The notes under the pieces were generated by a model. It saw only the letters and a program-made list of their open reading frames with translations, made no database searches and was not told the DNA's origin. A stretch of 13,566 nt of DNA from Promethearchaeia archaeon (GTDB lineage Archaea > Asgardarchaeota > Lokiarchaeia > Sigyniarchaeales > SOKP01): NCBI GenBank assembly GCA_046497275.1, contig JAWOFX010000129.1, forward strand, positions 1 to 13,566. The letters are read 5' to 3'. Positions 127-13,566 of the stretch are shown in pieces. Within the stretch, counting starts at the first letter, position 1; each line of letters begins with the position of its first letter. A program made the translations under genes and the position numbers.

Positions 127-2040
127 TTAAATTTCAGAAAGAAAAAGATCTGCAATGGTTATCCATTTTGCTTGGAAATCAGAGTTAATGGAGCTTTTTT
201 CCACTAGTTCTTTCCCTTTTTTAAGATTTTTAATTGATAAATTATCATTCCCAAGGGCATTATAGCAAATACCTAGTTTAATATAAGACTGATAAATAAA
301 CCATTCGTCACTACACATAACAATTGCTTTCAAAAACTTTTTAATCGCTTCATCATATTCTTCAAAGTACATCAGGATCTCTCCATAATTATCGTAATAA
401 ATCCCTTTATCGGGATCATCATCAATAAGTGTTTGCATTATCTCTAAAGCTTCTTTCCTCCTGTTTAAATATTGGAGCCAATAGGCTTTATAGCTTAGGA
501 GATCATTATTATTTGAATATTTTTGGATTAAATTCTCAATAATTTTTAATCCTGCCTTAATATTTTTCTTTTTCTTAAGAATGGATGCCTTCTTCATTTT
601 AATGTTTATTTCTCTTTCGGGGAAAAGATCCAACATCTCATCTAATATTTTAATTATTTCATTATATTGATTATAATAGATTAAGATTTTAATTTTAGAT
701 TCATATAAATCGATGTTTTGCGGATTAAATTCAATTTTATTATCAATTTTTCTCACTTTTTCTTCGAATTGATCCGATAAGCCTTTACTCAGTTGCGAAT
801 TAAACGTCTCCGACATATTCTCCCAAATTAACCATTCCAGTTTATCAGAAGTCTCGTAAATATTTTTCAAATTCGGGTTTAATGAGATTTTATAAGCCAA
901 ATACTTAATATACTCTGGAAAAAATTCTTTTAATGATTTTTTAAAATCTTTATGAAATAAAGATTCACAAGCTTCCTCTAATAACCGATCTATCATCGAA
1001 TCATCAACAGAATCTAATAGCATATCTAATTTTTTCGAGTTAAGAATATTTAAATAAGCAATTTTATTAATATAGCTCTCTGTAAGAACTTGGAGTATCC
1101 GTTCTAATTTATTCTCTGTTAAAAAATAAAATATACCTCCAGAAGGACCATTCAATTTAAATAATTGATTTTGATATATTTTACCTTCAGACAATTCATC
1201 AATATAATAACTAAGAATCGTGGTTTTTATTTTGAATTTTTTGGAAAAATCTTCCTTTGATACAAAATTAGGATATCTATCAGGATGATTCAACGCAAGA
1301 AATAGAAGTATTTTATAAAATAGTTCTTCATCTTTTAGAACTTGGTTAACTCTCTCATATGGAAGATTTAAGATATAATTTATAAAATGGAACTGAATTT
1401 CTTTATCCCTAATTCTAAATTTATCAAAAAAATTAAGAATTCTTTGATTTCTTTCTTCAATAATTTTACCCTCCTCTTCTAAAATGGTTTGTCGGTCTAA
1501 ATTGTAATTGTGCAGCATTCTTGAATATTCTAATTTACCAGTTCCAGTTATCTTGTATTTGCCATTTTCTTTTATTATAAAACCCTCTTCGATTAATGGC
1601 TTTAAATTCTTCGATAATGAGGAAGTATTTATTGTTAACGGTTCTTTAAGAAAATCTGCTCTTTTACAGTAAGGGTTGTTATAGAGCATCCACAATATCC
1701 AATCAGAATAATTTCTTCCATTTTTTAGAATTAATTTAGGAGGATAATTTACCTTTCTTATATTTTTAGTTGCTCTCGATAATTCATAATATTTTTTTTT
1801 CCCTTTTGGATTAATTTTATAATTCCCTCTTGAGATTTTATCAATATATCCTTTATTCTTTAATTCTCTTAAATGTCTGGATAATGTACCAATAGGAATC
1901 TCGATTGGTTCTTCGGTAAAATAAGACCATTGACACACTTCATTATTATATAACATCCAGAGAATTATAAGATCATAATCTGGTTTTGTCTGTGTGGATG
2001 AATCATAGATTTCTTTTGGAGGATAATTTATAAGAACCAT
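127..2040 (-). CDS. Tandem winged helix-turn-helix + C-terminal TPR protein, putative transcriptional regulator (637 aa)
   Basis: Two clear internal repeats: aa 4-87 (INYPPK..IILWMLYNN..GTLSRHLRELKNKGYI..GNYKINPKG) and aa 97-176 (VNYPPK..WILWMLYNN..SSLSKNLKPLIEEGFI..GKYKITGTG), both with an HTH-plus-wing pattern. A degenerate third copy lies at about aa 225-305. TPR-like motifs in the last ~200 aa (e.g. YYDNYGEILMYFEEYDEAIKKFLKA). Confidence 0.8.
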   Translation of the reverse strand: MVLINYPPKEIYDSSTQTKPDYDLIILWMLYNNEVCQWSYFTEEPIEIPIGTLSRHLRELKNKGYIDKISRGNYKINPKGKKKYYELSRATKNIRKVNYPPKLILKNGRNYSDWILWMLYNNPYCKRADFLKEPLTINTSSLSKNLKPLIEEGFIIKENGKYKITGTGKLEYSRMLHNYNLDRQTILEEEGKIIEERNQRILNFFDKFRIRDKEIQFHFINYILNLPYERVNQVLKDEELFYKILLFLALNHPDRYPNFVSKEDFSKKFKIKTTILSYYIDELSEGKIYQNQLFKLNGPSGGIFYFLTENKLERILQVLTESYINKIAYLNILNSKKLDMLLDSVDDSMIDRLLEEACESLFHKDFKKSLKEFFPEYIKYLAYKISLNPNLKNIYETSDKLEWLIWENMSETFNSQLSKGLSDQFEEKVRKIDNKIEFNPQNIDLYESKIKILIYYNQYNEIIKILDEMLDLFPEREINIKMKKASILKKKKNIKAGLKIIENLIQKYSNNNDLLSYKAYWLQYLNRRKEALEIMQTLIDDDPDKGIYYDNYGEILMYFEEYDEAIKKFLKAIVMCSDEWFIYQSYIKLGICYNALGNDNLSIKNLKKGKELVEKSSINSDFQAKWITIADLFLSEI

Positions 2041-2235: not shown

Positions 2236-5200
2236 TTGATAACAATTAAATATATAAAAAATAAAAAACGAAAATCAAGAATTATTCTAATTCTAATATC
2301 TTTCTTACTTCTCATGCCCATCTTTACCAGTCTTATTCAAGGAGAAACCAGTTTTATAACAAAAATAGAAGATTTTGAACGTGGTAATCTTAAAAACTCT
2401 CATATATATTATAGAGAGACTGAAGGGGGGGGTTATGATGTGTATGTGAATGGTGATTATGCTTACATAGCAGATGATTGGAAAGGACTAGCAATAATAG
2501 ATATCTCAGATCCGACCAACCCGGGAGCTCCCATTTACGAGGATATACCATCTGGTTGGGCTCAGGCTGTATATATAAGTGGAAATTATGCATATGTCGC
2601 ATATACCGGAATGACAAAAAATGGATTAGCGATTATTGATGTTTCCGATCCTGAACATCCAGTGTTAGTTGCTAATGTCGATACTGAATGTGCTTGGGAT
2701 GTATATGTAAGCGGCAACTACGCATATGTTGCGGATGATAATAATGGTTTAGCGATTATAGATATTTCTGATCCTACCATTCCAGTAAGTATTGCTAATA
2801 TAACAACATATGATGTGGCTAACGGAGTATTTATAAGCGGTAATTATGCATATGTTGCAGATGGAAATGCTGGTTTGACTGTAATTGATGTTTCTGATCC
2901 TACCAATCCGGGAATTGCGGCGAACGAAGATACGGACGGATACGCACAAGCTGTATATGTAAGCGGTAATGATGCCTTTATTGCTGATGGAAGTGCGGGA
3001 TTAGTATATATCAATGTGCAAAGTCCTACTAACCCAGGAACTCCATATTATGAGAATACTTACGGAGCTGTAGATGTTGTTATCAGCGGAGATTATGCAT
3101 ATACTGTTGATTTATATGGAATGGTTGTTTTTGATATACATTCTCCACCTTTTCCAAATGATATTGCTTATGAAGATATTGATGGATATACAAGAGGAAT
3201 ATGTATAGAAGGAAACTATGCTTATATTTCTGGCAGTGTAGGTTTAGCAGTGGTAGATATATCTAAAAACATAGACCCATTATTAATCAATAATGAAATA
3301 ACAATGGGAGAGGCAATACAAGTCTGCATTGATGGAAATTATGCTTTTATTGCAGATTATGACCAGGGTTTGACTGTGGTTAATATCTTTGATCCTACCC
3401 ATCCAGCAATAGTTGCTAATATAAATACAACGGATTATGCATGGGATGTGGATGTCGATGGAAATTATGCCTATGTAGCCTCTAGTTATTCGGGCTTAGC
3501 AATTATCGATATTAAATATCCAGACACGCCAGGAGCGCCAGTTTATTTAGATACAGATGGTTGTGCAAGAGCTGTAGACATAAGTGGTGATTATGCCTAT
3601 GTAGCGGATGGCTTGGAAGGCTTAAAGGTCATTGATATCAGTGACCCAACTATTCCCGTATTGGCTGGGCAGAAAGACACGGCTGGGTATGCAACTGATG
3701 TCAAGATAGATGGAGATTATGCCTATATGACCGTTGGTGCTGATGGGTTAGCAATCATCGATATCAAGAATCCAAACTCGCCAGGAGCACCAATTTACAT
3801 AGATCCGGTTTATTATGCTCATGGAGTAGACATCCGTGGTGATTTTGCTTATATAGCGGAACATAGTAATGTTCAAGGAGGCGTTTTAAACGTAATTGAT
3901 ATCTCCAATCCTCTTAGTCCCCTATTAGCCTCAAGAATAGGTACTCTTACATCAAGTGCATATAAAGTTTATGTGAGTGGTAATTATGCATATATTGCTA
4001 GCGAAGATAGGCTAACAGTAATAGATCTTAAATGGGATGGAACTGGATCGCATTATACGCATTCAGATACGATTAATGAGTGTATTGGAGTATATGTAGA
4101 GGGTGATTATGCGTATGTGGCTAGTCGTTCTGAAGGATTAGTGGTGGTTCAAATTAGAGAGAGAGCTGATCTGGATGATCCAATCATTACTGAAAACCCA
4201 AGTGACTTGCTTCTCGAATGTGGTTATACCGGAAAGATAATCGCATGGAGAGCAACTGATCTTAATCCTGATACCTATACTATTGAACTTCAAGGTTCCG
4301 GAAACGTAGCAGGCCCAACAGCGTGGTCTAGCGGAGTTGTAGTAACATATGATATTCCTAATGGATTAGGAGTAGGCACTTATACATACACAATCAATTT
4401 CACGGATACTAATGGTAATTTTGCAACTGATACAGTAGAAGTTACTGTTCAAGATACCGAAAATCCCGTGATTATAGATTCTCCAGACGATAAAATAGTT
4501 GGATTAGGATATTCTGGCGTGAATTTTCAATGGACGGCAACCGATGAAAATCCCTACAATTATACGATCGAACTTCAAGGTTCTGGAAATGTAGTAGATT
4601 CAACTGGATGGTCGAGCGGAATACCGATAGTTTATAATGTACCAGAGGGATTGGGATTGGGTGAATATTATTACACCATCAATTTCACTGATGATTATGG
4701 ACATTTTATCCCAGATACGGCAAAGTTAAGCGTCCAAGATATAAAAGATCCTGTAATTACAGATGCCCCGACAGATATAGCTGTTGAGCTAGGATATCCA
4801 GGTACCGTGAATTTACAATGGAATGCAACGGATGATAATCCTAATACCTATACTATTGAACTTCAAGGCTCTGGAAGCGTGGCAGGACCAACTGCGTGGT
4901 CTAGTGGGGTCGCAGTAAATTATGATATCCCAAACGGATTACCATTAGGAGAATATTATTATATAATCAATTATACGGACGATTATCAGAATTTTGTGAT
5001 TGACACTGTTAAATTCACTGTAGGTGATACAGTAGATCCTATAATTACTGATACTCCAGCAGATTATGAGTGTTTTATTGGATATGCAGATGTGTGTCTC
5101 TTTTGGATTGCCACCGATGCTCATCCCGCTACATTCACTGTTGAGCACCAAGGTCATGGTATCGTAGCAGGACCAACTCCCTGGGCGAGTGGAACTAATG

Positions 5201-5424
5201 TGAGTTATACAATCCCAGAAGAATTATCTGTAGGAGAACACTTTTTTACCATCAATTTTACTGATCTTGCTGGAAATTTTGCCACTGATACTGTAAAAAT
5301 TACTGTCAATGAGGAGAGTTCCGGTGAAGAAACTCCTGGTATTCCTTTTGGAAATTGGTTTTTGATTTCCATGACAATTTCCATTATTGGATTAGTGTTT
5401 ATTCAAAATAAAAGAAAAAAATAG
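2236..5424 (+). CDS. Large cell-surface protein: signal peptide, LVIVD-repeat beta-propellers, four Ig-like repeats, C-terminal sorting/anchor segment (1062 aa)
   Basis: Basic N-region (KYIKNKKRKSR) followed by a hydrophobic stretch; 14 repeats of type V.V.G.YAYVAD...GL.IIDISDP..P; four 95-96 aa beta-rich repeats; C-terminus PGIPFGNWFLISMTISIIGLVFIQNKRKK. Many N-x-S/T sequons (NIT, NTT, NFT, NYT, NAT, NVS). TTG start as annotated. Confidence 0.9.
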   Translation: MITIKYIKNKKRKSRIILILISFLLLMPIFTSLIQGETSFITKIEDFERGNLKNSHIYYRETEGGGYDVYVNGDYAYIADDWKGLAIIDISDPTNPGAPIYEDIPSGWAQAVYISGNYAYVAYTGMTKNGLAIIDVSDPEHPVLVANVDTECAWDVYVSGNYAYVADDNNGLAIIDISDPTIPVSIANITTYDVANGVFISGNYAYVADGNAGLTVIDVSDPTNPGIAANEDTDGYAQAVYVSGNDAFIADGSAGLVYINVQSPTNPGTPYYENTYGAVDVVISGDYAYTVDLYGMVVFDIHSPPFPNDIAYEDIDGYTRGICIEGNYAYISGSVGLAVVDISKNIDPLLINNEITMGEAIQVCIDGNYAFIADYDQGLTVVNIFDPTHPAIVANINTTDYAWDVDVDGNYAYVASSYSGLAIIDIKYPDTPGAPVYLDTDGCARAVDISGDYAYVADGLEGLKVIDISDPTIPVLAGQKDTAGYATDVKIDGDYAYMTVGADGLAIIDIKNPNSPGAPIYIDPVYYAHGVDIRGDFAYIAEHSNVQGGVLNVIDISNPLSPLLASRIGTLTSSAYKVYVSGNYAYIASEDRLTVIDLKWDGTGSHYTHSDTINECIGVYVEGDYAYVASRSEGLVVVQIRERADLDDPIITENPSDLLLECGYTGKIIAWRATDLNPDTYTIELQGSGNVAGPTAWSSGVVVTYDIPNGLGVGTYTYTINFTDTNGNFATDTVEVTVQDTENPVIIDSPDDKIVGLGYSGVNFQWTATDENPYNYTIELQGSGNVVDSTGWSSGIPIVYNVPEGLGLGEYYYTINFTDDYGHFIPDTAKLSVQDIKDPVITDAPTDIAVELGYPGTVNLQWNATDDNPNTYTIELQGSGSVAGPTAWSSGVAVNYDIPNGLPLGEYYYIINYTDDYQNFVIDTVKFTVGDTVDPIITDTPADYECFIGYADVCLFWIATDAHPATFTVEHQGHGIVAGPTPWASGTNVSYTIPEELSVGEHFFTINFTDLAGNFATDTVKITVNEESSGEETPGIPFGNWFLISMTISIIGLVFIQNKRKK
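2425..4167 (+). repeat. 14 LVIVD-type repeats (~41-47 aa each), probably two 7-bladed propellers
   Basis: Counted by eye from GGYDVYVNGDYAYIAD to ECIGVYVEGDYAYVAS. Repeats 7, 13 and 14 depart from the usual DP..P ending. The 2x7 fold is inferred from the count. Confidence 0.8.
4168..5310 (+). repeat. Four tandem Ig-like beta-sandwich repeats A-D (starts 4168, 4453, 4738, 5026)
   Basis: Consensus D..DP.I...P.D.....GY......W.ATD.NP..YTIE.QG.G.V.....W.SG..V.Y..P.GL..G.Y..TINFTD..GNF..DTV...V. Spacings are 285, 285 and 288 nt. Confidence 0.85.
5335..5421 (+). other. C-terminal protein-sorting signal (PGF-CTERM/Loki-CTERM-like)
   Basis: Short P/G/aromatic motif (PGIPFGNW), ~17 hydrophobic residues and a basic tail (NKRKK). 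This is the tripartite layout of archaeosortase-type substrates. The specific family assignment is from recall, not a search. Confidence 0.7.
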
Positions 5425-5432
5425 TCAAGATC

Positions 5433-5455
5433 TTTTTTTTTAATTTTCTTTTTTT
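5433..5455 (+). terminator. U-rich archaeal-type terminator after the surface-protein gene
   Basis: T9 run starting 9 nt after the stop, followed by more T runs; conserved in the duplicate copy. Confidence 0.6.
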
Positions 5456-5458
5456 CTC

Positions 5459-5503
5459 ATCTCAAAAATTATTAGTCCATATTTCAACTTTATATATAAG
5501 TAA
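5459..5503. promoter_or_regulatory. 45-nt conserved non-coding block with TATA-box-like TTTATATA
   Basis: ATCTCAAAAATTATTAGTCCATATTTCAACTTTATATATAAGTAA is identical to 8435-8479. It contains the palindrome TTATATATAA (5490-5499). Confidence 0.5.
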
Positions 5504-5630
5504 GTTTAATTTTAAAATAAGTCCAAAAAGTAATTGAAATAGATTTTTAATTTATAGCAATTTTTTTTAAGAAGGCGATATAAATAAAAGTATTTAGTAT
5601 TTTAGTAAAATTCAATATTTAACTCTAAAA

Positions 5631-7580
5631 ATGATATCAGAAACAATAAAACAAGCCAAAAACTTATTCGAGAACGGAAAGTTTGAGAAATCTTTAATCA
5701 TATTAGATAAAGTAGGGAATTTAGAAGATCTAAAGGATTCAGAAAAGCTTTCTTATAATCTTTTAAAAAGCTCTCTTTTTTTTAGATTCAGAAGGGATGA
5801 AGAGTGTCTTCGATATGCTGAAATCACATATCAACAAGCTCAAAATTTAAACCATAAAATGTTATCCATTGATGCTCTTCTCAATAAGTCGTGGGCTTTA
5901 TTTTGGTTTGGAGATTTCGAGCAAGCGAATATTTCAATCAAGACTGCTGAAAAAATTCTTAACAATCTAAAAAATATATCTGATTGTGATTATGAGAGGA
6001 GAAAAGCATTTATTTATTTTATCAAAGCTTGTAGGTCATGGTTTTTATCCGACTCCAAAGGATTAAAATATGCTAATAAAAGTCTGAAAATTCGTCAAAG
6101 GATTGGAAGAAAATATGAAATTGTAGAATCCTATAGTATTTTGAGTGGATTAATCACTCATTTTACTGATGATTTCGATAATGCTTTAGAGTTTTTAGAA
6201 AGATGTCATAAACTGGGTCTTGAAATCCATCATCCTTGGACAGAAACATTTGATCAAAAAAATTTTGGAGACATATATTACATAAAAGGTGATTTACATA
6301 GAGCTTTGAAGCATTATAAAAGAAGTACTAAGATTTTTGAAGAAAATAACAATTTAAATCCTATCCTCAGCACTTTTAGCGAGATTGGAAACGTATATAG
6401 AGAGATGGGGGATTTAACCGAATGTTGTAATTATCTTATCTATAGTTACGATATTTCAAAGAAAACTCAAAACTATTGGTTAAATAGTGAAATCATAACT
6501 AATATTATAGAAATTTTGGTTTTAAGAGGTAATATTAAAAAGGCTGAAATATATTTAAAAAAATTAGAAGGAATCTATAAAACGCATCCTAATAATAAGC
6601 GTTTTGAACATTCTTATCTTATTGCTAAAGCGCTTATATTAAAATTCAATCCTAGAATTAAATCTCAAGCCCAATCGCAAGAAATTTTCACAACTATTAT
6701 CAAAGATCAAACTCTTAAAAATGATTATTTGATAACTGCCTTATTAAATCAATGTGAATTGCTTTTACAAGAACTTGTTTTAACAAATAGAGATGAAATA
6801 ATTGAGGAAATAAATTCCTTAATTGAAATACTATTAGAGAGAACAAAAAATTTAAGATCATATTGGATTTTATCAGAGACTCTAGTTCTACAAGCAAAAG
6901 TAGCATTATTGACATTTAAATTGATAAAAGCAAGAAAATTACTTACAAAAGCACAATTCATAGCAGAAAAAAATGGTTTAAATCGCTTATCTGTAAAAAT
7001 TTCTCATGAACATGATGAGCTATTACAAAAGTTCAAAAAATGGCAACAATTAAAGGATTCAGAATCACCCATATCTGAACGAATCAAATTAACTAATTTA
7101 AGCGAACAAATCTCCAATTTGGTTCAAAAACGTAGAATAAGTATTTCCAAAATAGTCGAAGAAAGTCCGATTATGATCCTGATTTTTTCTGAAGGAGGTA
7201 ATCCAGTTTATTCACAGGTTTTTGCTGAAGAAAATTCTTTTAAATATCATCTTTTTGGAGGATTATTAACAACTTTGGATTATTTTATAAATGAAATCTT
7301 TTCTGAGGGTCTCGATAGGGCCATATTTGGAAAATATACACTATTAATTAATAAAATAAGTCCGTTTATTATCGTTTATATTTTTAAAGGAAAATCATAT
7401 TTGGCCTTACATAGGATCAAACATTTTTGCAAAACTATTCGGGATGAGGGATCAATCTGGGAAAATTTAATAGATCGCTATCATCAAAATAAACTCATTC
7501 ATCAAAATGATATTCCTTTACTTGATCTAATGATAAGTAAAATATTTATTGAAAAAAGTATTGTCTTAGAAAATTTTTAA
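5631..7580 (+). CDS. TPR-repeat protein with C-terminal longin-like domain, paralog 1 (649 aa)
   Basis: TPR motifs (FGDIYYIKGDLHRALKHYKRS; IGNVYREMGDLTECCNYL). The C-terminal ~140 aa (from ~7158) show a longin-like pattern: IMILIFSEGGNPVYSQVF (beta hairpin), LFGGLLTTLDYFINEIF (helix), three strands, then helices. Confidence 0.85.
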   Translation: MISETIKQAKNLFENGKFEKSLIILDKVGNLEDLKDSEKLSYNLLKSSLFFRFRRDEECLRYAEITYQQAQNLNHKMLSIDALLNKSWALFWFGDFEQANISIKTAEKILNNLKNISDCDYERRKAFIYFIKACRSWFLSDSKGLKYANKSLKIRQRIGRKYEIVESYSILSGLITHFTDDFDNALEFLERCHKLGLEIHHPWTETFDQKNFGDIYYIKGDLHRALKHYKRSTKIFEENNNLNPILSTFSEIGNVYREMGDLTECCNYLIYSYDISKKTQNYWLNSEIITNIIEILVLRGNIKKAEIYLKKLEGIYKTHPNNKRFEHSYLIAKALILKFNPRIKSQAQSQEIFTTIIKDQTLKNDYLITALLNQCELLLQELVLTNRDEIIEEINSLIEILLERTKNLRSYWILSETLVLQAKVALLTFKLIKARKLLTKAQFIAEKNGLNRLSVKISHEHDELLQKFKKWQQLKDSESPISERIKLTNLSEQISNLVQKRRISISKIVEESPIMILIFSEGGNPVYSQVFAEENSFKYHLFGGLLTTLDYFINEIFSEGLDRAIFGKYTLLINKISPFIIVYIFKGKSYLALHRIKHFCKTIRDEGSIWENLIDRYHQNKLIHQNDIPLLDLMISKIFIEKSIVLENF

Positions 7581-7676
7581 TATAGAAAGTATAAGTAGAA
7601 TATTATATGAACGGATTAGTTATTAGAAAGAATAAGCTAAATTAAAAAGTTTTGAAAAAGAGAGACAAAAAACTTT

Positions 7677-7748
7677 ATGAGTTCAACCAAAATATTAAGA
7701 GCAAATAAATTATTCGAGAATGGAAAATTTCAAGAATTCCCCAAGTGA
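7677..7748 (+). pseudogene. 5' remnant of a fourth TPR-longin paralog (MSSTKILRANKLFENGKFQE|FPK*)
   Basis: Not in the ORF track. Aligns without gaps to the 10598 protein N-terminus (MKSKQIVEAKQLFEEGKFEE) and matches the 5631 gene in DNA (ttattcgagaatggaaaattt vs ttattcgagaacggaaagttt). Homology stops at about 7736, where surface-gene sequence starts. Confidence 0.85.
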
Positions 7749-8394
7749 CCTGATTCTCGAATGTGGATATACTGGTGAAAATATCTCATGGACAGCAACT
7801 GATGATAATCCTAATACCTATACGATTGAACTTCAAGGTTCTGGAATCGTGGCAGGACCAACTGCGTGGTCTAGTGGGGTCGCAGTAAATTATGATATAC
7901 CTAACGGATTCCCATTAGGAGAATATTATTATATAATCAATTATACGGACGATTATCAGAATTTTGTGATTGACACTGTTAAATTCACTGTAGGTGATAC
8001 AGTAGATCCTATAATTACTGATGCTCCAGCAGATTATGAGTGTTTTATTGGATATGCAGATGTGTGTCTCTTTTGGATTGCCACCGATGCTCATCCCGCT
8101 ACATTTACTGTTGAGCATCAAGGTCATGGTATTGTAGCAGGACCAAATCCTTGGATAAGTGGAAATAATATGAGTTATACTCTTCCAGAAGGGTTATCAG
8201 TGGGAGAACACTTTTTTACCATCAATTTTACTGATCTTGCTGGAAATTTTGCCACTGACACAGTAAAAATAACAATTCAAGAAGAAAATGGTGTTGACCC
8301 TCCTTCATCTATTCCTTTCGGAAATTGGTTTTTAGTTTTTATGACAATTTCCATTATTGGAATAGTGTTTATTCAAAATAAAAGAAAAAAATAG
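7720..8394 (+). pseudogene. 5'-truncated paralog of the surface-protein gene: two Ig-like repeats plus C-terminal anchor; frame still open (224 aa)
   Basis: Homology to the 2236 gene starts abruptly at about 7740 (cccaagtgac = 4197-4206). No signal peptide and no LVIVD part. The ATG at 7720 is an out-of-frame ATG inside the TPR remnant. Confidence 0.8.
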
Positions 8395-8402
8395 TCATGA
8401 TC

Positions 8403-8434
8403 TTTTTTTTTAATTTTATTTTTTAATTTTTTTT
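8403..8434 (+). terminator. U-rich terminator after the truncated surface-gene copy
   Basis: T9 and further T runs at the same distance from the stop as in copy 1. Confidence 0.55.
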
Positions 8435-8479
8435 ATCTCAAAAATTATTAGTCCATATTTCAACTTTATATATAAGTAA
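8435..8479. promoter_or_regulatory. Second copy of the 45-nt conserved block with TTTATATA
   Basis: Identical to 5459-5503; flanking DNA differs. Confidence 0.5.
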
Positions 8480-8578
8480 ATTCAATTTTAAAATGACAAT
8501 AGAAATTAATCGAAGGAGATTTTTTAATAATAATTTTTAAACTAGGCGATATAAATTATTTCTAAAAAGTTAGAGCAA

Positions 8579-10483
8579 GTGAGGAATTTAATCAAGAAAG
8601 ATAAAAACCAAAGTGCTATCGTTATTTTAAACGAAATTGAAGAAAAGGAAGATCTAGAACAAACAGAATTACTAAACTTATATCATTATAAAGCAACTGC
8701 TTTTATCAGATTGGGAAATTATCCGGAAACATTAAAGTATGCCAAAAAAGCTTATCGTATTATTCGTAAAAAAGGACTAAGTTCTCAGCTACTTGAATCA
8801 TTAATAATGTTAGGCCACTCGTCAAGTTGGTTGGGAAATTTCGAAAAAGGGTATCAATATTTAAACGATTCGGAGCAGATACTAAATAAACTTGCTGATC
8901 TTTCAGAAAAAAGAAGAATAAAATACGAAGCAATGATATGTCTTAGTAAGAATTGTGGATATATGCAAAAAGGAAAAAATGAACGAATTTATCATTTAGC
9001 AATGAAAGTTTTGAATCTAAGTGAACAAATTGATGATAAATTTGTTTTAGCTGAATTATATTATCAATTAGCATCAATTTATACATTTTATAAAATTGAT
9101 GTAAAAAAAGCTATTAAATATTCACAAAGTTGCCAAAATCTTGCAGAAGAGCTTGAAAATAAAACTATAATCGCCTTAAATTTAGTAACTATGGGGTCCA
9201 TTTATATAATGATAGGCGATTTAGAAAAAGCATTTTTTTATCATAAAGAAGCACTGAAAAATACTGATATCTTTATGATTAGAATGTCAATTTTTAATAA
9301 TCTTTCTATGATTTATTGCCAAAAAGGAGAATTAAATAAAGCTTTAGAATCACTCGAAAAAGCTTTTAATATAGCTGATAACAATAAAGCTCCTTATATG
9401 ATGATCAGCATACTAACGAGTATTATTGAGGTCTTGGTTTTAAAAAATGAAGCAAAAATAGCAGAGAATCATTTAATAACACTTAAAGATATAGCAGAAA
9501 AAGAGAAAAGCAAACTTGCTGAAATATATGCTAATTTCTGTGAAGCTCTCATCTTGAAATCAAAGAAACGCATCCAAGATCACGCAAAAGCACAAAGAAT
9601 TTTTGAAGAAATAATCCAAAAAGAGGAGTATTACGGAGAGCTAACAATGAAAGCTCTTATAAATCTTTGTGATCTATTTATCGAAGAATTTAGATTGACC
9701 TCTGAATTAGAAGTATTAGAAGACCTAAATCAATTTTTAGAAAAATTATTAATTATCGCAGAAGAACTTAATTCTTTTTGGATCTTAGCTGAAACATATC
9801 TTTTGCAAGCTAAAATTGTTTTATTAAAGGGAGATTTGAAGGCTACAAGGAAAATACTAATTGATGCTCAACATGTTGCAGAAGAGCACGACCTTAAATT
9901 GTTATTGGGTAAAATATCATATGAGCACGATAAGATTTTGAAAAGTTTGAAGACTTGGGAATCTCTTATTGAAAATGAAGCACCCTTAAAAGAACGTATA
10001 GAATTAGCTGAGCTAGATGTGCATATCGAAAATATGCTTTTCAATCGTAAAAAGAGTCTTGAGATCTCTGAAGAAGAACCTGTAATCATTTTCATTATAA
10101 GCGAGGGTGGAAATCCTCTCTTTTCCCATTCATTTATTGAGAATTTAAAATATGAATCGCACCTCTTTGGAGGATTTTTAACCACGATTGATTTTTTTAT
10201 CAAAGAGATGTTTTCGGAAGGTTTAGACAGAGCAGTGTTTGGGGATTATACTCTACTCATGAAATCCATTTCACCTTTTTTCATAACATATGTGTTTAAA
10301 GGAGATTCTTACTATGCCTTACAAAGAATAGGATATTTTACTGAAAAAATACAAAAAAATACCATTATTTGGAATAATTTAAAAAAAAGATTCCAACAAA
10401 ATAGGTCACTCCGATTAGAAGATATTCCCTCATTTGATTTATTATTAAGATCAGTTTTTATTGAGAAAAATATTCCTTTATAA
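8579..10483 (+). CDS. TPR-repeat protein with C-terminal longin-like domain, paralog 2 (634 aa from GTG; frame extends 8 codons upstream to ATT at 8555)
   Basis: TPR motifs (MGSIYIMIGDLEKAFFYHKEA; LSMIYCQKGELNKALESLEKA). Longin-like C-terminus from ~10070 (VIIFIISEGGNPLFSHSF..HLFGGFLTTIDFFIKEMFSEGLDRAVFGDYTLLMK). Confidence 0.85.
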   Translation: MRNLIKKDKNQSAIVILNEIEEKEDLEQTELLNLYHYKATAFIRLGNYPETLKYAKKAYRIIRKKGLSSQLLESLIMLGHSSSWLGNFEKGYQYLNDSEQILNKLADLSEKRRIKYEAMICLSKNCGYMQKGKNERIYHLAMKVLNLSEQIDDKFVLAELYYQLASIYTFYKIDVKKAIKYSQSCQNLAEELENKTIIALNLVTMGSIYIMIGDLEKAFFYHKEALKNTDIFMIRMSIFNNLSMIYCQKGELNKALESLEKAFNIADNNKAPYMMISILTSIIEVLVLKNEAKIAENHLITLKDIAEKEKSKLAEIYANFCEALILKSKKRIQDHAKAQRIFEEIIQKEEYYGELTMKALINLCDLFIEEFRLTSELEVLEDLNQFLEKLLIIAEELNSFWILAETYLLQAKIVLLKGDLKATRKILIDAQHVAEEHDLKLLLGKISYEHDKILKSLKTWESLIENEAPLKERIELAELDVHIENMLFNRKKSLEISEEEPVIIFIISEGGNPLFSHSFIENLKYESHLFGGFLTTIDFFIKEMFSEGLDRAVFGDYTLLMKSISPFFITYVFKGDSYYALQRIGYFTEKIQKNTIIWNNLKKRFQQNRSLRLEDIPSFDLLLRSVFIEKNIPL

Positions 10484-10597
10484 GAGATTTAAAAAACAGA
10501 ATTGAAAGTGAAAAATTATATTATTTATTTGAATATAGAAAAATTAGTAATTTTATTTAATGAATTTTTTTAAAACATTAGTATCCAACAAATTTGT

Positions 10598-12547
10598 ATG
10601 AAATCTAAACAAATAGTAGAAGCCAAACAATTATTTGAGGAAGGAAAGTTCGAAGAAGTAATTACTTCATTAAATAAGATTAAAAAAATCCAAGATTTAA
10701 CGGACTTAGAAAAACTTACATATCACCTTCTAAAAAGTTCTGTTTTCATGAGATTTAGAATGGATAAAAAATGTCTTAAATATTCAAGTATTGCTTGTCG
10801 TGAAAGCCAGAAATTGGAGCAAAATCTTTTTTTAATCGATGCGATTCTAAATAAAGCTTGGGCTATTCTTTGGTTAGGCAATTGGAAAAAAGCTAATGAG
10901 TTAATTAAAAAAAGTGAGGATATTCTTAATTCTCTAACAAATTTAACTATGTTAGAATTCCAACGTAAGAAAGCATTTATTTTTTTCATGAAAGCTTCTT
11001 GTTATTGGTTTCATGCTAATCAAGATGGTTTGAATTATGCAGAAAGAAGTCTGGAAATACGAAAAAAGCTTGGCATAAAATTTGAAATAATTGAATCTTA
11101 CAGCATAGTCTGTGCGTATTATACTCATATAAAAGACGATTTGGATTATGTACTGAAAGTATTAGAAAAATCTCAAGCACTTGCAATTGAAATTAACCAT
11201 CCATGGGTATATACCTACAACTCTAAGAGTTTTGGAGATATTTATTATATGAAAGGGGATTTAAAAAAAGCATTAATGTATTATAAAAGAGGTGTTAATT
11301 ATTTTGAGGAATTAAACGATTTATATCCTGCTCTTATAACTATAAGCGAAATAGGTAATATTTATAGAGAAATGGGTGATATAAGTCAAAGCTGTGATTA
11401 TCTTAAATATAGTTATAGAATTGCTAAAAAAAATGGTAACAAATGGATAAAAAGTGAAGTGATTGCAAACTTAATAGAAGTTTTAATTATTAATGGAGAT
11501 ATTCAACCTGCTAAAATGCATTTGAAAGAATTAGAGGAAATTTACAAAGCATTACCCAATAACAAACGTATTGAACAAACTTACTTGCTTTCTAAAGCTC
11601 TTATTTTAAAATCAAATCTAAGATTTAAAAGTCAAGCAAAAGCACAAGAAATATTAAAGGATATTATTGATGAAGAAAAGATAAAAAATGAATATCTTAT
11701 AGTTGCGTTATTAAATTTATGCGATTTATTACTAGAAGAATTAGAAATTACTAATAATATGGAAATAATAGATGAAATAAATCAACTCATTAAGAAATTA
11801 ATAGAAATTACAGAAAATTTGAAGTCATATTGGACATTAAGTGAAACATTTGTATTACAAGCAAAAATATCGCTTCTAAAATTCGATTTAATGGATGCGA
11901 GAAGACTTCTAACACAAGCCCAAAAGATAGCTGAAAAATATCAAATGAATCGATTAGCTGCCAAAATTTCTTTCCAGCATGATGATTTACTTCAGAAATT
12001 GACTATGTGGAAAAAATTAAAGAATTCGGATTCTTCTTTAGCTGAACGCATGAAATTATCTGATTTAAAGACACAAATATCATCCATGATCCAAAAACGT
12101 AGAGATCAAATTCCATTAATAGAAGAGGAAAATCCAATAATCTTACTCATAAGCACAGAGGATGGGGATCCTATATTTTATCATTCCTTTATTCAAGAAG
12201 AAACAATCCCATCCCATCTAATTAGAGGATTCTTAACGAGTATTGATTTTTTCATAAGAGAAATGTTTTCTGAGGATCTTGACAGAGTTATGTTTGGAGA
12301 CTATACCTTAATAATGAAATCTATCAAACCATTCTTTATTGCTTATATATTTAAAGATAATTCTTATCACGCTCTTCGAAAATTGAATTATTTTATTAAG
12401 AATATAAAAAAAGATTATGAGATTTGGGAAGATCTAATAAAAAATTACCATATGAATAAAGAGATTCACATAAAAGGTAAACTCTTGCTTAAAGAAATCA
12501 TAAAAAAAACCTTTTTGGATAGAATCTCTATTTCAAATAATGGATAA
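10598..12547 (+). CDS. TPR-repeat protein with C-terminal longin-like domain, paralog 3 (649 aa)
   Basis: Same length as and colinear with the 5631 protein (roughly half of residues identical by eye, not computed). Longin-like domain from ~12122. Confidence 0.85.
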   Translation: MKSKQIVEAKQLFEEGKFEEVITSLNKIKKIQDLTDLEKLTYHLLKSSVFMRFRMDKKCLKYSSIACRESQKLEQNLFLIDAILNKAWAILWLGNWKKANELIKKSEDILNSLTNLTMLEFQRKKAFIFFMKASCYWFHANQDGLNYAERSLEIRKKLGIKFEIIESYSIVCAYYTHIKDDLDYVLKVLEKSQALAIEINHPWVYTYNSKSFGDIYYMKGDLKKALMYYKRGVNYFEELNDLYPALITISEIGNIYREMGDISQSCDYLKYSYRIAKKNGNKWIKSEVIANLIEVLIINGDIQPAKMHLKELEEIYKALPNNKRIEQTYLLSKALILKSNLRFKSQAKAQEILKDIIDEEKIKNEYLIVALLNLCDLLLEELEITNNMEIIDEINQLIKKLIEITENLKSYWTLSETFVLQAKISLLKFDLMDARRLLTQAQKIAEKYQMNRLAAKISFQHDDLLQKLTMWKKLKNSDSSLAERMKLSDLKTQISSMIQKRRDQIPLIEEENPIILLISTEDGDPIFYHSFIQEETIPSHLIRGFLTSIDFFIREMFSEDLDRVMFGDYTLIMKSIKPFFIAYIFKDNSYHALRKLNYFIKNIKKDYEIWEDLIKNYHMNKEIHIKGKLLLKEIIKKTFLDRISISNNG

Positions 12548-12635
12548 GTTTCTCTATTAAAAAATATTAAATTCTTTTTTAATTGAAACTAAAAGATTAT
12601 TTTCAACTAAAAATTTATATTACCTAAATTTTATT

Positions 12636-12643
12636 TTTATATA
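12636..12643 (+). promoter_or_regulatory. Candidate TATA box for the GTPase gene
   Basis: TTTATATA ends 38 nt before ATG 12681 but only 17 nt before TTG 12660, which favours the ATG start. The AT-rich background lowers specificity. Confidence 0.35.
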
Positions 12644-12659
12644 GTAATTTTACCATAAC

Positions 12660-13226
12660 TTGTTAGATCATAATGAAAAAATGTCTAGTTCAGAAGATTT
12701 TATTTTTAAGATAACTTTAATCGGAGATGGGGCAGTTGGAAAGACTTCCTTGATAAAAAGATATACTCATGGGACTTTTGAAAAAGATTATATTAAGACT
12801 ATAGGTGCCCAATTTTCAAGATATAACAAAAAAATCGAGGGAGATGAGGTAGAATTAATATTTTGGGATATAGCAGGCCAAGATTTCCTTTTTTTACACC
12901 CTTTATTCTATAAAGAAAGTAAAGCGTGTATAATTGTATTTAGCCTCGAAGAAAATGATTTGGGTAATGATAGTTTTAAACATATAAAAGATTGGTATAA
13001 AGAACTTAAAAAATATTGTGGAGTTATCCCAGTTGTTTTATTGGCAAATAAAGTGGATTTAATAGATGAAAGTAATTTAAATACTACTAAAATTCAAAAT
13101 ATTGTAGATAAATATAACCTGCTTGATTTTTACACAACTTCAGCCAAAACTGGACAAGGAGTTATAGATGCCTTCAATAATATTATAAATAAACTATATC
13201 TCGATAGTAAAGCCTTAAGTGGATAA
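12660..13226 (+). CDS. Rab-like small GTPase of the Ras superfamily (likely start ATG 12681)
   Basis: G1 GDGAVGKT, G2 YIKTIG, G3 WDIAGQ, G4 NKVD, G5 SAK. No C-terminal cysteine for prenylation. Confidence 0.95.
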   Translation: MLDHNEKMSSSEDFIFKITLIGDGAVGKTSLIKRYTHGTFEKDYIKTIGAQFSRYNKKIEGDEVELIFWDIAGQDFLFLHPLFYKESKACIIVFSLEENDLGNDSFKHIKDWYKELKKYCGVIPVVLLANKVDLIDESNLNTTKIQNIVDKYNLLDFYTTSAKTGQGVIDAFNNIINKLYLDSKALSG

Positions 13227-13363: not shown

Positions 13364-13566
13364 ATGAAAATTATTATATTCGCTCCACACCCAGATGATG
13401 AGATCTTTGCTTGTGGAGGAAGCATACTGAAATGGCTTGAAAAAGATCATCAGATACATCTAATTTACGTTACAGATAATAGAGCTCTAATTGAATGGGG
13501 TATAAAAGAAAATCAATTACTTGAAGATTGTGCCCAAAAATATAGGAGTCTTTCTAAAGATGAAAT
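13364..13566 (+). CDS. PIG-L/LmbE family deacetylase (5' partial, runs off the window)
   Basis: Not in the ORF track. Translates as MKIIIFAPHPDDEIFACGGSILKWLEKDHQIHLIYVTD..., with the PHPDDE metal-binding signature. Confidence 0.9.
   Translation, partial: MKIIIFAPHPDDEIFACGGSILKWLEKDHQIHLIYVTDNRALIEWGIKENQLLEDCAQKYRSLSKDE

Follow-up and report, generated by a model that had tools for sequence, protein, structure and literature searches.

Can the order of genes along a contig tell which regulator belongs to which small GTPase in an Asgard archaeon? Longin and roadblock domains are well-known platforms for small GTPases, and the Asgard archaea hold many of both, the longin and roadblock proteins running to dozens and the GTPases of the Ras superfamily likewise; how regulators and GTPases pair up is almost entirely unknown. 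The question is raised here by a locus of a Promethearchaeia archaeon (Lokiarchaeia, Sigyniarchaeales; GenBank assembly GCA_046497275.1), in which an array of genes for tetratricopeptide repeat (TPR) proteins with a predicted C-terminal longin domain (the TPR-longin genes, of which the three intact ones are numbered 1 to 3 in the direction of reading) lies directly upstream of the gene of a Rab-like GTPase. The stretch analysed (the window) is the entire contig JAWOFX010000129.1, 13,566 nucleotides (13.6 kb) long, from a genome of 3.85 Mb with 30% G+C and 98.9% completeness.

In the cultured strain MK-D1, the gene layout generally does not reveal GTPase-regulator pairs (Tran et al. 2024, PMC10933270). 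At the present locus, gene order, a dedicated GTPase clade and the loss of the module in two relatives from the same genus single out one pair and, additionally, the locus points to a probable regulator and to candidate clients. We lean, with some caution, towards the reading that the region is one copy of a conserved accessory module, whose TPR-longin proteins would be the dedicated partners of the GTPases of this clade, docking onto them through the longin domain. Such a pair allows a direct biochemical test of whether a Rab-like GTPase is bound and switched by an archaeal longin, and which way, the outcome of which has a bearing on the age of the longin-Rab regulatory logic seen in eukaryotic trafficking. 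In the literature searched (supplementary tables not covered), no published description of the TPR-longin family or of its dedicated GTPase was found; the longin domain is hidden from annotation, because the databases name these proteins only “tetratricopeptide repeat protein” or “hypothetical”.

The C-terminal domain of the TPR proteins

The preliminary description of this locus, made from the DNA letters alone, had proposed a longin-like fold for the last ~140 residues of the TPR proteins. In each of the three paralogs this segment matches no Pfam family above threshold (only the TPR repeats, which are MalT-like in all three, do), and an NCBIfam scan returned generic TPR and small-GTPase models only. 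A structural model of residues 500-649, built on 45 homologs (predicted local distance difference test, pLDDT, 80), has the order strand-strand-helix-strand-strand-strand-helix-helix (E13-21, E26-31, H36-59, E64-67, E70-77, E80-87, H91-119, H130-141, with E for strands and H for helices). The same order is found in the C-terminal domain of the full-length model of gene 1 (pLDDT 87), in which a TPR solenoid (residues 1-475) is followed by a low-confidence, flexible linker (476-510) and by the longin domain itself (512-640, at about nucleotides 7164-7550 of the window).

In an all-against-all structural comparison with 48,161 representative solved chains, the top 32 matches were all longin domains (Z 8.4-12.4, with 112-137 residues aligned). 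The best of these were synbindin (Z 12.4), TRAPPC1 (12.0) and AP2 sigma (12.0), and VAMP7, Sec22, sedlin and SRX were also found; the Mon1/Ccz1 chains scored Z 8.4-9.2 and the SRX domains, which are matched over the full length of the fold, Z 8.3-9.5. Going by this predicted model, the C-terminal domain is of the longin fold, as had been proposed. Foldseek recovered the same longins, interspersed with Roadblock/LAMTOR and MglB chains (E ~5e-4 to 8e-3). A Roadblock/LC7 topology of the MglB type, which has an N-terminal helix ahead of its first strand, does not fit: the first elements of the domain are two strands and the last are two to three helices, and the Roadblock matches are partial (MglB, MglC, LAMTOR and Asgard roadblock chains, Z 7.1-8.4 over only 85-101 residues).

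At the sequence level, the only recurrent Pfam signal is PF19036, the first longin of Mon1/Fuzzy/HPS1, which appears below threshold in 13 of the 45 family members; its best match (16.6 bits, E 0.0095) stays under the cut-off of this curated longin family (26.1 bits). A feature-based atlas search agrees with this signal, as a lead, and a longin-profile search of the sequences of solved structures gave chance-level matches only. The family consensus S-E-G-G-x-P-x-F-S, in which one G is invariant and the P, one residue beyond it, is mostly conserved, lies before the second strand, and an invariant arginine (R563 in gene 1) follows 40 residues past the G-G-x-P.

The TPR part resembles the peptide-binding superhelices of LGN/Pins, RapI and MalT domain III, with LGN as the best solved match (E 9e-8). 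No family match was obtained for a P-loop nucleoside triphosphatase (NTPase; NB-ARC/AAA) of the STAND type (signal transduction ATPases with numerous domains) N-terminal to the TPR part, and the model of gene 1 consists of TPR helices from residue 2.

The wider family comprises ~75 full-length relatives of ~650 residues, and all those with a source name come from Asgard metagenome-assembled genomes (MAGs). The longin profile matches 1157 representative clusters and, among the 150 listed, the domain is nearly always C-terminal in proteins of 600-700 residues; 349 of 400 genomes of the phylum match the profile at E 1e-5 or better, and several families show strong matches as well as tandem arrays, which hold up to five genes. 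The window's own genome (G000) has no members of the family beyond the three genes described here. Elsewhere in it, a profile built from the three longin sequences gives weak matches (E 3e-4 to 5e-3) at C85:9661-13344, C99:279-1031, C44:84758-86056 and C153:3729-4142, one of them being an open reading frame (ORF) of 152 residues beside a 1036-residue TPR protein on C85; such matches could be remote relatives of the longins.

The GTPase clade and its linkage to TPR-longin genes

The best solved relatives of the GTPase are Rabs (Rab23, E 6e-30), and the best 58 listed are all Rab or Ypt1 chains. As the motifs G1-G5 (GDGxVGKT, T40, WDIAGQ, NKVD and TSAK) are invariant in 19 orthologs, the protein looks active, to judge by its sequence. 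A C-terminal prenylation cysteine is absent in all 19 (the window protein ends in ...LDSKALSG) and, therefore, we term the protein Rab-like and not a Rab. With ~48 Ras-family matches in the 3.85 Mb of this genome, one neighbouring GTPase alone means little. However, in a tree with all 46 Ras-like GTPases of the genome, the array-linked GTPases form one clade (SH-aLRT, the Shimodaira-Hasegawa-like approximate likelihood ratio test, 100; stem 0.93), which holds no other GTPase of the window's genome. Strong matches to the profile of this clade come from three families of one order only (130 of 134, 1 of 1 and 13 of 14 genomes), with 0 of 250 genomes elsewhere.

The linkage was surveyed from both sides. 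Among 52 TPR-longin loci from five related genomes, ten arrays end directly in a co-oriented GTPase of ~185 residues. From the GTPase side, the 30 best-scoring clade members in other genomes were taken, of which 29 were testable, and upstream of 22 of these lies a co-oriented longin domain, whose end is 91-417 bp away and in most cases ~130 bp; in the window, the distance between gene 3 and the GTPase is 133 bp. Within the genus, one genome (G274) carries the TPR-longin, GTPase and winged helix-turn-helix (wHTH)/TPR genes in the same order, including a PIG-L gene, while two others (G277 and G278, 92-95% complete) have neither a TPR-longin nor a wHTH/TPR gene and carry only a paralogous GTPase (255-280 bits versus 312-317) in a different context. 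The surveyed genomes are mutually related, so that these counts overstate independence, and the pattern still spans several genera. The association, which the preliminary description had noticed in this window and had proposed to follow across Asgard genomes, is conserved and specific, far beyond what would be expected from the abundance of the two families.

A single TPR-longin gene precedes the GTPase in the loci L086, L129 and L032, and hetero-dimerisation of paralogs through their longin domains, as had been suggested earlier, cannot be required on this reading of gene content, because such single-copy loci exist.

The GTPase gene is preceded by an element (Table 1) resembling the transcription factor B recognition element and TATA box (BRE/TATA), which in most related loci sits at a fixed distance (~72 nt) upstream of the ATG. 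No other recognisable copy of this element was found in the window or in the genome, nor was a shared module operator.

Some further GTPases were noted in the course of the survey. After the clade GTPase, a second, unrelated Ras-like GTPase (208-224 residues) is present in L033:11506-12180 and L051:10329-10955, and groups in the tree with a GTPase on contig C109 of the window's genome (29761-30357). A paralogous GTPase (249-279 bits to the clade profile) occurs in L131, L133, L134, L135 and L136 (genomes G275-G278 and G149), as part of another, likewise conserved, four-gene set with a gene of ~100 residues, one of ~160 residues and a second GTPase of ~170 residues. In L132 (G149:C1, ~475151-478300), the gene directly upstream of a clade-like GTPase (297 bits) encodes an 838-residue protein with a weak longin-profile match (E 2e-5), which may represent a divergent partner family.

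Gene content and history of the window

The arrangement that had been read from the letters alone (three intact and one deleted TPR-longin gene in tandem, a co-oriented Rab-like GTPase downstream and surface-protein genes interleaved with the array) was recovered in full, with one of the surface-protein genes whole and the other truncated (Table 1). No mobile-element genes are found among the window ORFs and, in a Pfam scan, the module showed no NTPase, nuclease or other effector domain.

Table 1. Features of the window, in order along the contig, with the basis of each assignment (aa, amino acids)
Feature	Position	Strand	Basis
Double winged-helix protein with C-terminal TPR, 637 aa; putative regulator of the module	127-2040	-	Pfam HTH_34, HVO_A0261_N, MarR, TPR
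Surface protein, LVIVD-repeat/Ig-like, 1062 aa	2236-5424	+	Pfam LVIVD (E 2e-122), Big_13
TPR-longin gene 1, 649 aa	5631-7580	+	MalT-like TPR repeats; longin model and fold matches
Stub of a fourth TPR-longin gene (20 initial codons up to a deletion junction)	7677-7736	+	Weak profile match to positions 1-20; translation; DNA alignment with the starts of genes 1 and 3
ORF of 224 aa, copy of the 3' end of the surface-protein gene	7720-8394	+	E 1e-127 to surface-protein residues 843-1062
TPR-longin gene 2, 634 aa, GTG start; divergent extra copy	8579-10483	+	End-to-end alignment; part-wise identities
TPR-longin gene 3, 649 aa, directly upstream of the GTPase	10598-12547	+	End-to-end alignment; ortholog in L088
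BRE/TATA-like promoter element of the GTPase gene	12607-12622	+	CTAAAAATTTATATTA, one mismatch to the GCTAAAATTTTATATTA element of related loci
Rab-like small GTPase, 181 aa from the ATG at 12681 (ORF opens at TTG 12660)	12681-13226	+	Pfam Ras (E 3e-39)
PIG-L family deacetylase gene, start only	13364-13566	+	Pfam PIG-L (E 9e-10)

Genes 2 and 3 align end to end with gene 1, at 36% and 52% identity, respectively. Gene 1 is the ortholog of the first gene of a locus from the same genus (L088; 54% identity) and gene 3 of the second (62%). The TPR part of gene 2 shares ~30% identity with any relative, whereas the identity of its longin part is 47-55%. In the family tree, the three paralogs of the window are each other's closest relatives and, on this phylogenetic footing, are a recent lineage-specific expansion; conserved A, B and C subunit positions within the arrays were considered and rejected, as paralogs group by lineage in the tree.

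Between genes 1 and 2, the window segment 7677-7736 encodes MSSTKILRANKLFENGKFQ, which matches the N-termini of all three intact genes, and the reading of this stub then passes into a sequence that is a homolog of the surface-protein gene's 3' part. Over 4818-5585 and 7788-8556, the DNA is 88% identical, and the 224-residue ORF that overlaps the second of these stretches, which has no signal peptide, is probably a remnant. The combination of a stub, a truncated surface gene and a divergent gene 2 indicates that a unit of surface gene and TPR-longin gene was duplicated and that a deletion then occurred. Gene 1 shows, moreover, a mixed similarity: its TPR part is nearer to gene 3 (54% versus 30% with gene 2) and its longin part nearer to gene 2 (55% versus 45%), and the regions upstream of genes 1 and 2 are 88% identical, with the genes themselves at 36%. 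Such mosaic similarity suggests recombination or gene conversion inside the array.

The divergently oriented gene at the left end of the window (127-2040) lies outside the region that the preliminary description had delimited (5631-13226) and, judged by its recurrence in relatives, it belongs to the module. Homologs of it (E 1e-117 to 1e-266) stand beside TPR-longin/GTPase modules in L032, L037, L040, L041, L047, L049, L051, L079, L082, L127 and L129, and a gene of the same length with the same Pfam families does so in L083, L086, L088 and L090. In nearly all GTPase-linked loci a wHTH/TPR gene adjoins the array, usually divergently, and MAGs labelled by their submitters as Hermodarchaeota have a gene of this length and these Pfam families in that place. 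The divergently transcribed double-wHTH/TPR protein is probably the transcription regulator of the module. That it could be a paralog of the TPR-longin proteins was rejected, given that there is no pairwise similarity. The module as such was found only in one Lokiarchaeial family.

The slot between regulator and array is usually occupied by a gene for an exported or membrane protein, and such genes recur across relatives (a link to the surface proteins had been suspected from the window): the slot holds an LVIVD protein in L086 and a PPC/PKD protein in L088. In the window, the 1062-residue protein opens with a signal or anchor and closes with a hydrophobic helix and a basic tail (its hydrophobic segments are at residues 12 and 1036), and it carries 14 LVIVD repeats as well as Ig-like repeats. 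Both copies of the surface protein (5340-5424 and 8310-8394) end in I-P-F-G-N-W-F, a hydrophobic helix and the basic tail NKRKK, a three-part C-terminus which, we assume, recalls archaeosortase-type sorting signals such as PGF-CTERM. In two other genera, the modules carry a conserved 130-residue membrane protein with four hydrophobic helices (starting MTEIKKLTKI) and a signal-peptide protein of 210-236 residues (L037:4506-5861, L040:6752-8073, L047:8693-10654, L051:4407-4799, L082:3262-3657 and 5952-6584); these two families have no counterpart in the window, where the large LVIVD surface protein fills the slot.

The PIG-L gene at the right end is a syntenic neighbour, whose membership in the module is not implied. 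It also lies 3' of the GTPase in L088 (12640-13323), and none was seen in the modules of other genera. A gene for a B12-binding radical-SAM protein adjoins TPR-longin genes in L083:8550-10787 and L085:3173-4435, from MAGs labelled by their submitters as Hermodarchaeota and Thorarchaeota.

Short contigs from the salt-lake metatranscriptomes of two studies (150-300 nt, 99-100% identical) map to each of the three paralogs, to the regulator and to the surface gene, and one piece at 97% identity maps to the GTPase; none bridges 12548-12680. As such libraries can hold DNA, and as the contigs give no ends or strand and none is bridging, they prove neither transcription nor co-transcription.

Possible action of the module and comparison with known systems

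The core of the module would consist of one to five TPR-longin genes (each encoding a TPR superhelix of ~475 residues, a floppy linker and a C-terminal longin), one Rab-like GTPase of the dedicated clade with its own promoter, and the divergent double-winged-helix/TPR protein as probable transcription regulator. By analogy with TRAPP, Mon1-Ccz1 and SRX-SRbeta, the conserved longin would dock the cognate GTPase and, once docked, would either control its nucleotide state or read that state out. The TPR superhelix may bind a peptide or protein ligand, and, in the fast-diverging gene 2 at least, would be the part that varies, so that several TPR-longin paralogs could couple different inputs or clients to a single GTPase switch. 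That the longin serves as an exchange-factor-type platform is a tentative proposal, which the Mon1/Fuzzy-type signal and the TRAPP-like fold favour. The G-G-x-P and the invariant arginine recall the longin GTPase-activating proteins (GAPs), in the sense of a sequence likeness, and a GAP activity towards this GTPase appears quite unlikely. Effector binding of the SRX kind is equally compatible.

A number of observations count against such a dedicated partnership. Seven of the 29 clade GTPases have no upstream TPR-longin gene, 40 of the 61 surveyed TPR-longin genes are not in GTPase-linked arrays, and solo TPR-longin genes are found in L085 (labelled Thorarchaeota), L089 and L091; the family as a whole must, therefore, have functions without the clade GTPase. 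In a sister family (f3; closed genomes G143, G138 and G135) and in family f2 (G130), the nearest GTPases (222-270 bits) lie beside neither TPR-longin nor wHTH/TPR genes, and the cultured relatives in f3 may be without the module. The GTPase appears to have its own conserved promoter, so that the genes are co-oriented but not necessarily in one transcript, and co-transcription is not implied. The top fold matches include non-catalytic longins (sigma-adaptins and SNAREs). Additionally, the idea of a variable TPR part joined to a conserved longin, present in the preliminary description, holds for genes 1 and 2, between which the TPR part diverges much faster (30% identity, against 55% in the longin part), and is reversed between genes 1 and 3, where the longin part (45%) is less conserved than the TPR part (54%), which does not fit a simple picture of constant output and variable input.

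The complex prediction that had been suggested as a further check stands on both sides of the balance: it speaks for binding between longin and GTPase, at a strength rated as weak support. Two longin domains were modelled with the GTPase in three runs, together with controls, and the longin-GTPase pair reached an interaction prediction score from aligned errors (ipSAE) of 0.59 in all three, versus 0.01 for the best control; the runs share at least 88% of their contacts, with a partner pLDDT of at least 83. In the benchmark of the method, 58 of 80 solved complexes and 2 of 110 mismatched pairs came up to the mark, and only 7 of the 80 solved complexes passed with an ipSAE at or below 0.60, a range which also contains both passing mismatches. 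Since longin-Rab complexes have already been solved, the predicted pass may reflect memory or likeness rather than binding.

In the likeliest rival reading, the longin would be an effector or adaptor and not a regulator, binding the GTP form of the GTPase (as in SRX-SRbeta, or adaptor subunits with Arf1), and the switch would recruit the cargo held by the TPR part, with the paralogs as alternative effectors. We regard this as rather doubtful. The SRX domains do figure among the full-length fold matches, next to the non-catalytic longins already mentioned; many partners for one GTPase suit multiple effectors as well as multiple exchange factors, and the TPR part resembles the peptide-binding scaffolds LGN/Pins and RapI. 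Nevertheless, the sole sequence-level signal (itself sub-threshold) is to the catalytic first longin of the Mon1/Fuzzy/HPS1 exchange factors.

That the genes are mere neighbours, co-regulated by the shared wHTH/TPR protein or drawn together by an envelope process, with the longin dimerising or binding other partners and the GTPase regulated elsewise, we hold to be unlikely, in view of the short and constant distance of ~130 bp at 22 of 29 loci, the near confinement of the GTPase clade to array loci, the joint absence of TPR-longin and regulator in G277 and G278 (where only the paralogous GTPase is left) and a predicted complex score that is 0.58 above the controls, though rated as weak support. 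Such a loose association would agree with the GTPase having its own conserved promoter, with the many family members that live without a GTPase, and with the finding of Tran et al. (2024, PMC10933270) that, as a rule, the GTPase genes of Asgard archaea do not share operons with genes for longin or roadblock proteins.

A diversifying sensor or conflict system, in which TPR arrays would act like STAND sensor arms with the GTPase as a switch in trans, and in which amplification, remnants and exported proteins would reflect an arms race or surface variation, is very improbable: the TPR part does match the MalT-like sensor repeat family, the expansions are lineage-specific, a gene stub and a truncated surface gene lie within the array and the module is patchy within one genus, but there is no meaningful match to the PADLOC defence models (generic TPR and winged-helix similarity only), no NTPase, nuclease or other effector domain in the module and no mobile-element gene among the window ORFs.

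A dedicated longin-GTPase partnership could be extended to an Asgard-specific, multi-input envelope switch of Rab type, in which the TPR part of each paralog would read a different client or signal, a Mon1/TRAPP-like longin would act on the one GTPase, so as to control the export, placement or turnover of the co-encoded surface, secreted and membrane proteins, and the wHTH/TPR protein would tie in transcription. In this extended form the proposal is improbable; if true, cargo-specific Rab regulation would have in this switch a prokaryotic forerunner that works without internal membranes.

Among the known systems, Mon1-Ccz1, Fuzzy-Inturned and HPS1-HPS4 are alike in pairing a longin with a Rab-type GTPase, and the sub-threshold PF19036 signal and the full-length structural matches to Mon1/Ccz1 point in their direction. 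The proteins described here differ in having one longin instead of three consecutive ones, C-terminal to a TPR solenoid of 475 residues, in the single-copy loci, which do not show the obligate heterodimer of distinct subunits, and in a PF19036 match that lies below the Pfam cut-off, with the exchange activity being putative.

The TRAPP longins (TRAPPC1/Bet5, TRAPPC4/synbindin/Trs23 and sedlin) are the best structural matches (Z 10.4-12.4 over 120-128 residues), and in eukaryotes the pair forms the Rab1-binding platform. Unlike in TRAPP, the domain is here fused to a TPR part, the module has no TRAPPC3/Bet3-like gene, and there is no detectable sequence similarity.

The longin GAPs of FLCN-FNIP, GATOR1 NPRL2/3 and C9orf72-SMCR8 carry a GP motif (defined for FLCN, NPRL2, SMCR8 and C9orf72 in PMC12290439) at the end of the loop before the second strand, with a catalytic arginine finger next to it. 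The G-G-x-P of the present family, at about this place, and its invariant R563 may or may not correspond to these. The motif is here G-x-P and not GP, there is no DENN part, and the fold matches to chains of NPRL, the SEA complex and Lst4 are weaker (Z 7.5-7.8).

As an analogy only, LGN/Pins also joins a peptide-binding TPR superhelix (the best match to the present TPR part) to a module that engages a G protein; the G-protein-binding parts (GoLoco motifs in LGN/Pins) are not homologous and the G proteins are of different classes.

Finally, both MglA-MglB and the Asgard operon of a LAMTOR1-like protein, a Rab-like GTPase and a DENN protein predicted by Liu et al. (bioRxiv 10.1101/2020.10.19.343400) place the gene of a Ras-superfamily GTPase beside one of the Roadblock/longin superfamily, so that gene order gives the pairing, as it does in the window. 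The partner in the present module is a predicted longin instead of a Roadblock protein, it is fused to a TPR superhelix and amplified in arrays, and it is accompanied by a wHTH/TPR regulator and by a GTPase of a different clade.

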